From assembly GCA_964016885.1 (NCBI GenBank), contig OZ024741.1, forward strand, positions 98,332,001-98,396,000: a stretch of DNA of 64,000 nucleotides, written 5' to 3'. Each line of letters opens with the position of its first letter. The stretch's first letter is position 1. Below the pieces are notes generated by a model that was not told where the DNA came from, did no database searches, and saw only the letters and a program-made list of their open reading frames with translations. Both the position numbers and the translations under genes were made by a program. Source of the DNA: Eledone cirrhosa. Lineage: Eukaryota. Below, one piece after another: positions 2,997-63,339 of this stretch.

Positions 2997-3036
2997 TCTT
3001 TTACCGGTTTCGCAGTTTTTCTGCTTTTCAAAAGTA
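2997..3036 (-). ncRNA. Minimal hammerhead-like motif with UUGAAAA (U3:A8) core
   Basis: Minus strand: tt-TTGAAAA-gcag aaaaa ctgc-GAAAC-cg-GTA-aa; palindromic ACCGGT stem III; stem I weak. Lies in a ~190-bp insert between (TA)n runs. Confidence 0.55.
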
Positions 3037-4072
3037 GAGTTGAGATGGAGGGTCTGTGGTTTATATATATATATATATAAAAATATATATATATATATAC
3101 AGATGTAGATATAGATATATAGATATGTATATATAGATATGTGTGTATGGGTGTAGGTTGGTGAGTATGTTTGTAAATATGTATATTGTAATCTGACATT
3201 ATGTTATAGAAATTCTTGATACAGTATATATATATATATATATATATATATATATATATATATATATATATATATATATATATATACATACATATATATA
3301 TATATATGTGTGGGTGTGTGTGTGTGTGTGTGTGTGTGTGCGCGTGTGTGTCAGTGCATGCATGTGTCTATAGCATCTGCCAAAATATTTCCTCACACAC
3401 ATACACATAGGTTTATATATATATATATGTGTGTGTGTGTGTCTGTGTGTGTGTGTCTGTGTATAAATATATATATATATGTGTGTGTGTATGTTTGTGT
3501 GTTTGTGTGTGTGAATGCGTAACTCCTGCTGGAGTAGTTGGGCGCCATTGTGATAAACGGGACGTTTTGTTCTTATTAATCCTGGTAGAGCCCACCAGAT
3601 TGTTGGTCTGATCACAGTCGATTACTTGAAGGGAGATTGGGAGAGTTGTTAATTAAGAAATAGAAGGGCTCACCCGCAATACTGGACAGGTAATTTATAT
3701 ATCAACCTCAAATAATGCTATGAAATGTAGACCTCAGTACTCACAGTGCAGAAACGAATCGCGCAAAGTATTCTAACCTTTGTGCTAATGAATCCCTCCC
3801 CCAATTCTATCTATCTATCTATCTATCAATCTATCTATCTATCTATCTATCTATAGAGCATGAAATTAATAAACCTTTGTTTGTACTGCCTCTCTGTTTT
3901 GTTCCCGTTCCATTTTTCACTATATATATACATATATATATATATAAATGAAAATATAGAAATTAATGTGAGCAAGAAGCCAACAGTATATATATATATA
4001 TATATATATATATATATATATATATATATATATATATATATATATATATATATATATACATATATATATATA

Positions 4073-4340
4073 TGATAGTGGGGTTAGGAACCCTCGGGGA
4101 AATGGAAAAAGATGAGTATTGACGTACATGGAAGTCGAACCCACATCTGCGGTTATCCATATATATATATATATTTGGGTGATGTGCTGGTATAATGGTA
4201 GCACAGTGATCTGGATAACCGCAGATGTGGGTTCGACTCCCATGTACGTCAATACTCATCTTTTTCCATTTCTCCGAGGGTTCTTAACCCCACTATCAGG
4301 CTAAATGATTTCTTTTATTTCTTTAGACAAATACGGCGAT
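4073..4340 (+). mobile_element. tRNA-derived short element with fold-back duplication, embedded in (TA)n
   Basis: 4073-4159 is the reverse complement of ~4212-4298; arms are separated by (TA)n plus the 5' half of the tRNA-like head. Confidence 0.65.
4181..4251 (+). pseudogene. tRNA-like cloverleaf (tRNA pseudogene / SINE head)
   Basis: Acceptor GATGTGC/GTACGTC, A box TGGTATAATGG, T arm GTGGG-TTCGACT-CCCAT; anticodon stem has a mismatch and loop CTGGATA is non-canonical. Confidence 0.65.
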
Positions 4341-4500
4341 AGCTTATATTTCTAATTTTATATATATATATATATATATTTATATATATATATATATATA
4401 AATATATATATATATATATATATATATATATATATATATATATATATATATATATATATATATATATATATATATATATATATATATATATATATATATA

Positions 4501-60569: not shown

Positions 60570-61894
60570 TGGTTGGGGTAGAGGGGTTGTCTGCTGATGT
60601 TAAGTGGTCTCCTGTTTTTGTTATATTCCTTGTTGTTGTAAAATGTGGTTCGGGTTGGTGTTTGTAGATTGAATGGGGTGTTCCTGTACTGCGAGTATGG
60701 GTGTGTGTTTCTATGTGCCATGTTGTATTGTGGTGTTATAAGTGGCCTACGTTGTTGGTTGTATCGTGTGGTGTGGGTTTGCTGTGTATTGTGGAAGCGA
60801 GAGTTGAGAAAATGGTAATTACCTTGCTGTCCCCTTGAAGCGGGGAAGTTGTTACATCTATCATGGTGGTGGTATCCTTTCCCTATGTTTGACGATGAGG
60901 CATCCGCGTAGTAGTTGAGTGATTTGGTATGGTGTCTCCTTAAAGGGGGAAAGTTGTAAATGTCATTCTGGAGGAGATGATTTCTTAGGTTTTTGTTCCT
61001 TCTTATGGTAGCGAGGTTGGGAAGTTCATCTTCGGTGGGGTGCTTCCTTCTTCGTTTGTTAGTGGCTTGGGGGTTTGAGAAGTTGTTGTGCGGTTCAGTT
61101 ATGGGTTTTCCTATTTTTATGAACGGGTTATTGGAGGTGTAATCCGTTTGAAAAGTCGATTCATAGTGTAGGAACCAAGCGGCACTTTTTTCCCAGCGTT
61201 GAAGGGATTTCAGTTCTTCTCTGTTGCAGTCGCCTTTCCATAATTTGGAGATCTTCTCTACCTTGGGGCCTTCAGTTTTGTTGTTGATTTCCAGGAGGAT
61301 CTCTTCATCGATGGTTTTGATTTTTTCCTCATTTGTCTGGGCCCTCAGTTTAAGAAGTTCAATTTCTGTCTTCATTTTTTCCAATGCCATTCTTTCCCTA
61401 AGGTGTCTTTGAGGTTCGGGTTCATTTGGAATGGACTTTATTTGTAGTTTACGGGGGAGAGTTAGAGGGGTTGAGTTAAGCCATTTTTCATATATCTCTG
61501 CTTTGTTGTGATTTTGTATCATCTTCCAGAATGAGATCTTTCTGTCTCTGAGGGATTTGTTCCATTTTGGAATTGTTCGAATTTTCATTTTGTATGAATC
61601 AATCTCACATGGTTCTTCGTTGGTTTTTCCTGGGTTGGTAGTAGTGAACATAGTTTGGATAGTATCGCAAAGGTTTTGGAGTTTGTCGCCGATTTCGGAG
61701 GGTTTGTATCCGGTGGCGGTTTCCTTATTTGTGGAGTCAAGTTTGTCGACCAGCAAAGATAGGTTGGTGTTTATTTTCTTGAGTTCCCGTAGGATCTCTT
61801 CATTTGTGTTGATGAGGGTTGTATCCGTTTTTGTTGGCATTTTCAGTATCTCGTGTGAGGATATGATAGTTAAAAGAATAGAGCTGTAACACAC
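60530..61894 (-). CDS. PLE ORF1, 454 aa, predicted coiled-coil with basic N/Q/R/H-rich tail
   Basis: Uninterrupted non-repetitive ORF inside the element; heptad-like EKMKTEIELLKLRAQTNEEKIKTIDEEIL; ends ..PNHFLDTAHRYRQTK. Confidence 0.8.
   Translation of the reverse strand: MCYSSILLTIISSHEILKMPTKTDTTLINTNEEILRELKKINTNLSLLVDKLDSTNKETATGYKPSEIGDKLQNLCDTIQTMFTTTNPGKTNEEPCEIDSYKMKIRTIPKWNKSLRDRKISFWKMIQNHNKAEIYEKWLNSTPLTLPRKLQIKSIPNEPEPQRHLRERMALEKMKTEIELLKLRAQTNEEKIKTIDEEILLEINNKTEGPKVEKISKLWKGDCNREELKSLQRWEKSAAWFLHYESTFQTDYTSNNPFIKIGKPITEPHNNFSNPQATNKRRRKHPTEDELPNLATIRRNKNLRNHLLQNDIYNFPPLRRHHTKSLNYYADASSSNIGKGYHHHDRCNNFPASRGQQGNYHFLNSRFHNTQQTHTTRYNQQRRPLITPQYNMAHRNTHPYSQYRNTPFNLQTPTRTTFYNNKEYNKNRRPLNISRQPLYPNHFLDTAHRYRQTK
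60563..60569 (-). promoter_or_regulatory. Candidate -1 ribosomal frameshift slippery site U_UUU_UUA
   Basis: CAT TTT TTA GAC in the ORF1 frame; the -1 frame (TTT TTT AGA CAC..) is the ORF2 frame. Confidence 0.7.
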
Positions 61895-63300
61895 AAGTTA
61901 TTATATATTGGTAAACGGAATAGAAAATGCTGACAAATTGTTCACAGTTTAAAAATGGTTTAATTAGGAATAAAAAAGTATTAGTAATTGTATGGATTAG
62001 TATTCAGTTGTGGTTTTAAGTTTTTAAGTTTTTACCGGTTGCGCATTTCTAAATGCTTTTCAAAAATAATTTTGAGATAGTGTCCACACCCAGCGCATCA
62101 GCAAGGAATCTTACTTCATTAACAAATACGGACCCCCTCTAAACACTTCTCCCTAAGACGAACCCACAACATACACACGTCATCATACATACCTACATCA
62201 GCACACATCTCTACCCACATATAAACACAATAACATACGTAAACACACATGCTCTATGGTGCAACACAAAACAATATATGTGTATATATATATATATATA
62301 TATATATATATATATATATATATATATATATATATATAGTGAATATATGTATGTATATATATATATATATATAGTGAATATCATTTCACACCTTTTATTG
62401 TTAAGATTTTTGATGTTCTATTAAGAGAACCGATTTTACTGAAAAAATCGAATAATGTACACCATTTTACCAGGGCGAAAAAAATACTGGTCCATCCACA
62501 CACACACACACACATTCTCACACACACACACACACACACACACACACACACACACACACACACACACACACACACACACACACACATACACACACACACA
62601 CACACACACACACACACATGTATACACACACACACACACATACACACGCGTACATTAACATACAAAGAGACTTATACACACACACACACACACTTCTCCG
62701 TATAAGACAAAAGCTGAAAAATATCTTTGACATGCTAAAATACCCACCACTGCTTACAGAAACATTTCTACTGACCATCCCTGCTACCACGAATTACTCT
62801 GCTATACACACACACACACACACACACACACACACACACACACACACACACACACACACACACACACACACACACACACACTTATCTTAATAGCCATTTG
62901 ACACAAATCCCTACTAACCATTATCACAACATCGAACACCTTACTACTACTACACACACACACACATATTTGTTGTGAAAGAGTCATTTCTCAGTCTTGG
63001 CGCAAAATCAATTTTTTATTCACATTACCTCCACCGACCAATCAAAATTGTTTTGACCACAAGAATTTTTGCAAACACCAAGTAGCGCTGGAGCCACTTT
63101 TTTAACATAAAACCAGTCTTGGCGCAAAATCAATTTTTAACATTCACATGACCTCTACCGACCAATCAAAATTGTTTTGACCACAAGAATTTTTGCAACA
63201 CCAAAGTAGCGATGGAGCCACTTTTTTAACATAAAAACAGGTAGAATTCCCAAAACTAATCAGATCAGAGCAAACAACACGGACACTCTATCTCAAAATT

Positions 63301-63339
63301 ATTTTTGAAAAGCATTTAGAAATGCGCAACCGGTAAAAA
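63301..63339 (+). ncRNA. Variant hammerhead-like motif in pLTR (also 57280-57318 -, 62029-62067 -)
   Basis: ttt-TTGAAAA-gcattt ag aaatgc-GCAAC-cg-GTA-aaa; same layout as the 2997-3036 motif but GAAA is GCAA in all three copies. Confidence 0.5.

Follow-up and report, generated by a model that had tools for sequence, protein, structure and literature searches.

The window analysed here, a 64,000-nucleotide stretch of the Eledone cirrhosa assembly GCA_964016885.1 (contig OZ024741.1, positions 98,332,001 to 98,396,000, forward strand), carries nine hammerhead motifs in which U3:A8 replaces the canonical C3:G8 core pair, all of them near the 3' ends of Penelope-like elements. Judging from where copies of these elements begin elsewhere in the genome, as truncated insertions or as fusions to U6 RNA, we consider it quite probable that the motifs cut element RNAs in vivo. 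The first-pass annotation of this DNA had reported U3:A8 cores at these sites, and all nine stood up to inspection, with a genome-wide excess over controls. Each site reads U3-U4-G5-A6-N7-A8-A9, followed by stem II, a G-N-A-A strand and a UH triplet, and the Watson-Crick 3:8 pair of the type I hammerhead core is present as U3:A8 in all nine copies. The three helices and the UH triplet of a type I hammerhead are likewise present, with stems I of 2-4 base pairs (bp) in families A, C, D and E described below.

The nine sites fall into four families, A to D. Family A has a 4-bp stem II, a palindromic stem III and a GUA triplet; its stem I, 4 bp in most genome copies, is 2 bp in the copy at 2997. 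Family B combines a 5-bp stem I, a long stem II (54-base arm) and a 5-bp stem III hairpin with a GUC triplet, while family C has a 5-bp stem II, the same stem III palindrome as A and GUC. Family D resembles A, with GCAA replacing GAAA (A13C). A fifth U3:A8 family, E, was found at other loci (L085, L095, L239, L466 and L478); here U10.1-U11.1 closes stem II and stem I is 2 bp. A, C, D and E share a minimal palindromic stem III of the dimer type, in place of which B has its hairpin. The strand G12-A13-A14-A15.1 is intact in A, B, C and E, and D, which carries C13 in 3/3 window copies, was filed as a variant. The annotation had read GAAAC in every motif, which holds outside D but not for the three D copies, where GCAA stands instead. 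Decay of the window copies as the origin of C13 was ruled out, as 97 of the 100 D matches listed genome-wide also carry it.

Carrier elements and their clades

Repeats of single insertions, terminal or inverted, account for the copies at 36187/38618, at 41172/41486 and at 57280/62029/63301, so that the nine sites represent about five insertions (Table 1). Their placement agrees with the terminal-repeat location described for Penelope hammerheads (Cervera 2014): D hammerheads flank their element, lying in both terminal repeats and in an inverted repeat, the B hammerhead lies 3' of its open reading frame (ORF), and A and C hammerheads lie downstream of reverse transcriptase/endonuclease ORFs in L450, L454, L462 and L463. 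The ORF of family C is absent beside the window copy at 41486 and present in L450 and L454; no carrier was found for E.

Two clades could be recognised. The Hydra clade is marked, in the clade descriptions of Craig 2021, by an RW motif, DKT, a CxCX5C linker, absence of CCHH and (TA)n insertion; the B carrier has this linker, CxxC/CxH without CCHH, and TA flanks, with RW and DKT seen in L413 (RWR, not RWK). For the Neptune clade we used a CX2-5CxxC linker, DKG and, at the C terminus, a GIY-YIG endonuclease with CCHH. The linker was found in L450, L463 and L116 and DKG in D and C, the D carrier having DKG with a CX4CxxC linker. Reverse transcriptases from the A, C and D carriers show about 52% likeness to one another, and 23-31% to that of B over short stretches. 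U3:A8 cores therefore occur in two clades, Neptune-type (A, C, D) and Hydra-type (B), the clade names resting on these motifs, and A, C and D probably inherited the swap once. What the annotation had called several unrelated families are indeed four families, but they belong to two clades and about five insertions, and A, C and D are related. Both carrier clades were already known to bear hammerheads (Craig 2021); the elements scored as lacking ribozymes, in which the annotation supposed that such cores may occur, are Naiad and Chlamys. Pfam returned no reverse transcriptase or endonuclease match for 14 window ORFs.

Table 1. Hammerhead copies and Penelope-like elements in the window
Feature	Position	Strand	Remarks
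Family A minimal hammerhead, palindromic stem III	2997..3036	-	U3 3031, A8 3026; predicted cut 3002/3001
Family B hammerhead, inverted 5' copy of insertion	36187..36280	-	U3 36275; predicted cut 36192/36191
Family B hammerhead near element 3' end	38618..38711	+	U3 38623; predicted cut 38706/38707
Family C minimal hammerhead, inverted copy	41172..41219	-	U3 41214; predicted cut 41177/41176
Family C minimal hammerhead	41486..41533	+	U3 41491; predicted cut 41528/41529
Diverged family B copy	56985..57078	+	82% to 38618; stem III damaged; probably inactive
Family D hammerhead, 3' terminal repeat	about 57280..57320	-	U3:A8 and C13; U3 57314; predicted cut 57284/57283
Family D hammerhead, 5' terminal repeat	62029..62069	-	Upstream of ORF; U3 62063; predicted cut 62033/62032
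Family D hammerhead, inverted terminal repeat	63301..63339	+	U3 63305, C13 63327; predicted cut 63335/63336
Hydra-type Penelope ORF, 5'-truncated	36324..37502	+	Carries B; reverse transcriptase end, CxCX5C linker, GIY-YIG endonuclease
Neptune-type Penelope ORF, four frame-shifted pieces	58245..61897	-	Carries D; N-terminal part, reverse transcriptase with DKG, linker, endonuclease
Hydra-type Penelope element, unbroken 821-residue frame	8266-10731	-	Canonical C3:G8 hammerheads; repeats 6974-8055 and 11033-12132; near-identical copies elsewhere

Canonical C3:G8 hammerheads are present in the same window at 370-408, 4686, 7020, 10881, 12032 and 40294. Since the unbroken Hydra-type element at 8266-10731 has canonical cores, both core types occur in the Hydra clade. 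Two further Penelope-like fragments, one Hydra-type and one decayed, lie at 13871-14938 (- strand) and 49842-50840 (+ strand). An Rfam scan of the window gave no hammerhead among the best 150 of 343 matches, which were microsatellite-driven microRNA matches and one tRNA-like match (4181-4251, + strand, 40 bits), probably the head of a short interspersed element (SINE). Many A copies (L001-L030) start about 40 bases before the core and about 30 bases after a TATA-like box, at a point where transcription of the terminal repeat likely begins. A similar TATA-like box lies inside a 124-base repeat at 62992-63240.

Genome-wide abundance and conservation of the fold

We scanned the 3.0-Gb assembly with exact patterns, using the reversed pattern as control. 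The A/C-type pattern gave 16,968 matches against 2 in the control (91 A, 8 C and 1 D-like among 100 matches listed), the D pattern 11,314 against 0, and the B pattern 6,625 against 14, all far above chance. Within B, 5,802 copies sharing one flanking pattern comprised 4,243 with U3:A8, 1,511 with C3.A8 and 48 with G8, and N7 takes all four bases across subfamilies. The C3.A8 copies mostly cluster by shared diagnostic bases into lineages, indicating that an unpaired core was amplified. For most of them, scattered mutation or a slipped T was ruled out by five C and the shared diagnostic bases; a few are sporadic. Family B was also present in contigs from four sequencing runs (organisms there labelled A, B and C), which are uninformative on cutting.

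A dominance of U3:A8 in the genome was not supported, as a strict descriptor applied to 39 random 10-kb stretches found 14 C3:G8 cores and 1 U3:A8 core, overlooking two E copies and one B copy there. Canonical palindromic cores number 9,694 genome-wide, many inside 466-base tandem repeats. Such arrays, with units of about 466 bases and one canonical hammerhead per unit, were seen at G000:C1:5738326-5752444 and elsewhere (L040-L060), and resemble retrozymes without long terminal repeats (non-LTR).

Of the six variant copies folded, that at 38618 alone adopts the full three-stem hammerhead as its lowest-energy structure, and a consensus fold of 22 B copies recovered stems I-III. Between A and D, one stem I pair and one stem II pair are changed on both sides; the comparison uses ten related sequences, so each compensatory change counts as one event. 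In this alignment 90% of cells are paired, compared with 23-43% in slid controls.

U6 RNA is joined at the predicted cut base

Searches for U6 3' ends gave 80 matches (30 of them in one gene array), 116 with a shorter anchor (100 listed) and 2 with a D-directed pattern. After the gene array was set aside (about 30 genes at 1.8-kb spacing, G000:C19:31778857-31840379, one examined copy being internally changed), the combined set comprised 82 dispersed loci among the matches listed. At 14 of them U6 is joined to a hammerhead family, and in 14/14 the element sequence starts on the base directly following the UH triplet, just past the predicted cut. Nine of these junctions fall in U3:A8 families: three in A (L434, L443, L444), two in B (L420, L472), one in C (L455), two in D (L470 exactly, L449 with the first base changed) and one in E (L457, on its predicted cut). 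Four belong to canonical families (L447, L456, L459, and L478, assigned by likeness only). The last (L433), exactly after GUA, belongs to an odd-core family (L072, L079, L169, L071) found downstream of Hydra-type ORFs, its 3' half being hammerhead-like, with GAAA, a palindromic stem III and a GUA triplet. The CUGA strand of this family has the sequence CUGAUAG or CUGAUAA and is placed some 30 bases ahead of the long stem; this is possibly another working variant core.

The U6 part was above the Rfam cut-off in 5 of 10 scanned chimera loci, and below it in L412 (the L420 locus). A five-U tract joined without extra bases was found at 13/14 hammerhead junctions, compared with 9/21 junctions to tails resembling SINEs or long interspersed elements (LINEs) (p 0.004); the same 13 lack microhomology and thus have the form expected of chimeras made by the tRNA ligase RtcB. 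When U6 partners were compared with about 2 Mb of loci, none matched any other position of families A-E. The remaining partners were classified by visual inspection; some dozen have no assignment and a few are true U6 genes.

Some of the other junctions deserve mention in their own right. About 20, with ragged ends, are grouped around a single position towards the 3' end of a LINE/SINE-like repeat, spread over a few bases. Two independent junctions (L473, L474) fall on the same base of an unassigned repeat with homologues in L089, L412 and L419. No hammerhead core was found upstream in this repeat, and Rfam gave nothing at cut-off; the repeat may hold a further self-cleaving RNA, or the junction base may mark a fixed RNA end.

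Truncation junctions of A and B pile up at the predicted cut

A cut RNA should leave copies that start on the base after the triplet, and truncation junctions were tested there. Junction classes were counted by eye over distinct loci in the first 100 listed rows, so that the counts for A, B and D given here and below are among the matches listed. In B, 11 of 30 junctions to non-element DNA lie exactly at the predicted cut, out of 17 positions (p 6e-7), and one truncation junction is joined to the U6 3' end. Stand-alone B pieces of about 100 bases, running from the cut to the element end, were seen at nine loci, which had been fetched because they start there. For A, 18 of 100 rows were set aside because they were whole motifs with indels. 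Over the other 82 junctions the predicted cut is the commonest position (17), but the peak is broad. Of 21 pure TA-flank junctions, 13 fit the predicted cut (p 0.001 against a null of 5/18), and a further four leave no ambiguity.

Two single loci show the cut base in other arrangements. At L413:585-1480 an ORF-internal position of a B element is joined to the cut base, and at L417:5815 nine extra bases stand exactly at the cut of another B copy. Both structures suggest joining at the cut end.

A model of occasional cutting and its alternatives

The hammerhead 3' product bears a 5'-OH. We propose that, in the germ line, type I U3:A8 hammerheads cleave a minor fraction of element RNAs at a predicted position about 100-170 bases before the element end, B folding as a monomer and A, C, D and E pairing two molecules through the palindromic stem III. 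Cleavage would release a short 3' piece bearing a 5'-OH; as this piece retains the reverse-transcription start site, it could be copied into the genome alone or after joining to U6 RNA, probably by RtcB. Whole-motif copies far outnumber cut-site starts, which indicates that uncut RNA would be the usual template and the source of most insertions. This would explain the spread of the C3.A8 lineage, and cutting would be unneeded for each jump. Its likely use would be the shortening of read-through or tandem transcripts to single units, so enabling ligation: cuts in two successive repeats would give an RNA one unit long, whose ends the same ligase could join into a putative circle.

Several observations weigh against cutting, or against its being selected. 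None of six folded variant copies was more stable than shuffled sequence (z -1.4 to +0.2), and the stems I of A, C, D and E are short. Covariation within B was found at 0 of 15 pairs among 22 copies, with no compensatory stem change. The unpaired C3.A8 core, in 1,511 of 5,802 B copies and forming lineages, argues against strict selection. Truncation junctions of D fit the cut in only 4/27 cases, no excess (p 0.28), an A-run blurring the reading there. A B lineage about 70% non-pairing shows the same pile-up as the rest (5/11 compared with 6/14). Cut-site starts are rare, with 267 junctions over nine positions against about 15,000 A copies. Fusions of U6 to the 5' starts of SINE-like RNAs were found as well, which indicates that template switching makes such chimeras too. 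In the anole element, no RNA-seq read ended at the cut and the ribozyme was dispensable in vitro, according to the experiments described in PMC11167929.

One rival model has no cutting at all: reverse transcriptase would stall on the folded motif, and there terminate or switch to U6. A stall would account for the unchanged peak in the mostly C3.A8 B lineage, where 5 junctions were seen and 1.5 are expected if only U3 copies cut (p 0.02); for four more B junctions at the base of stem III, shifted on by one or two nucleotides; and for the joining of U6 to SINE-like 5' starts, which should lack a 5'-OH. However, a stall should track helix geometry, and the same single junction base recurs in eight families with stems I of 2-6 bp and differing stems III. 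The clean five-U junctions are also unlike the ragged LINE/SINE class. We regard stalling as very improbable. Alternatively, the C13 core of D may be dead, in which case D RNA would be cut in trans by A, C or E partners in mixed dimers, as C3.A8 copies of B would be by U3:A8 copies. A13 belongs to the invariant core in the part of PMC7151607 that treats it, the stem III palindrome is common to A, C, D and E, the D truncation peak is weak, and the B lineages are nearly identical outside the core. Yet the stem I strand of A pairs with the downstream strand of D at two positions only, compared with three for D's own strand, D retains all other core bases and both compensatory pairs, and the frequency of U6 junctions is similar in the two families, at 2 in about 11,000 copies of D and 3 in about 15,000 of A. 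Cutting in trans thus appears rather unlikely, and we lean somewhat towards D being cut by its own C13 core.

A further possibility is compatible with cutting but denies selection: the motifs may be passengers, sharing their core by descent and cutting without benefit, so that variant and broken cores spread freely. The 1,511-copy C3.A8 lineage fits this view, as do the fixation of A13C across 11,314 copies (97/100 of those listed) and the retention of the uncut motif in nearly all copies. In the in vitro part of PMC11167929 mutants of the anole element transposed normally, and Craig 2021 suggests in passing that ribozymes may parasitise Penelope-like elements. Against it, reverse transcriptase lineages only 52% alike have retained the core, G10.1-C11.1 and the UH triplet while loops and flanks have become unalignable, and among the 22 B copies N7 and loop II vary freely and the stems do not. 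We doubt that the motifs are mere passengers. The annotation had taken the double change kept across families as a sign of selection; the two compensatory changes between A and D speak for this, but the restriction to two clades, the C3.A8 lineage and the lack of covariation in B speak against it. Its other proposal, that these are functional ribozymes, probably holds, given that U6 and truncation junctions both fall on the predicted cut base.

Comparison with known systems

The annotation, which noted the swap as a rare natural variant, had also held that CUGANGA-based searches miss such ribozymes, but they had already been recognised. Natural U3-A8 covariation, active in vitro, and U10.1-U11.1 as in family E were described by Perreault 2011 (PMC3088659), whose section on core variation does not name the A13C found here in D. 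Using a descriptor made for the purpose, Cervera and De la Pena 2014 (PMC4209133) found about 1,300 U3-A8 motifs in the Penelope elements of Schistosoma. As described there, the Cercyon hammerheads resemble those studied here in being type I, in lying in Penelope terminal repeats, and in their short stem I, G10.1-C11.1, U3-A8 core and thousands of dispersed copies, and they also have a palindromic stem III, as in A, C, D and E. They differ in that an unpaired base between A9 and 10.1 is common, whereas G10.1 directly follows A9 in A-D. In addition, stem III of B is of the monomer type and its stem II arm spans 54 bases, and D adds A13C. The same account gives low in vitro activity and no traces of in vivo cutting for Penelope hammerheads, in contrast to the genomic traces found here.

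RtcB joins U6 with a five-U, cyclic-phosphate end to 5'-OH RNA, and the U6/LINE chimeras examined by Moldovan 2019 (PMC6789731) are likewise five-U U6 joined without extra bases to retroelement RNA and then retrotransposed. In the cases presented there the 5'-OH ends are scattered along L1, whereas all ribozyme-family junctions here lie at the cut base. The anole Poseidon ribozyme needs protein and is dispensable for insertion in vitro (Frangione 2024, PMC11167929). In the portions of that paper on element structure and templates, Poseidon is similar in having a hammerhead upstream of its reverse-transcription start sites, two alternative 3' ends ('tail') and uncut RNA as main template; it differs in its canonical C3-G8 core, and no in vivo cut ends were found. 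Our search of the literature library found no paper on an A13C hammerhead, though Lunse et al. 2017 and the 2011 and 2014 supplements may list C13 cores. It likewise found none linking U6 chimeras to hammerhead cuts, and PMC11838501 contains nothing on ribozymes or Penelope. What is new here is therefore the genomic traces of in vivo cutting and the core of family D, the U3:A8 swap being already known.

Significance

By itself the U3:A8 swap is ordinary. In vivo cutting by Penelope hammerheads has been an open question since 2014, and this genome records base-exact ends in eight families. The junction record suggests that the tRNA ligase can use hammerhead ends, so that the cleavage-ligation model becomes testable. 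Our judgement is evenly balanced on the wider claim that the U6 chimeras are a fossil record of germ-line cleavage by Penelope hammerheads, including a U3:A8 and A13C core in more than 11,000 copies, and of a host ligase at work on the resulting 5'-OH products, which would be the missing step in the circle-based replication model. If the C13 core works, the hammerhead consensus assumed by descriptors and Rfam models widens. Junction evidence of this kind offers a cheap, genome-only screen for active ribozymes, and, if the reading is true, U6 junctions across animal genomes would reveal where self-cleaving RNAs are active, be they already known or not, with no need of RNA data.

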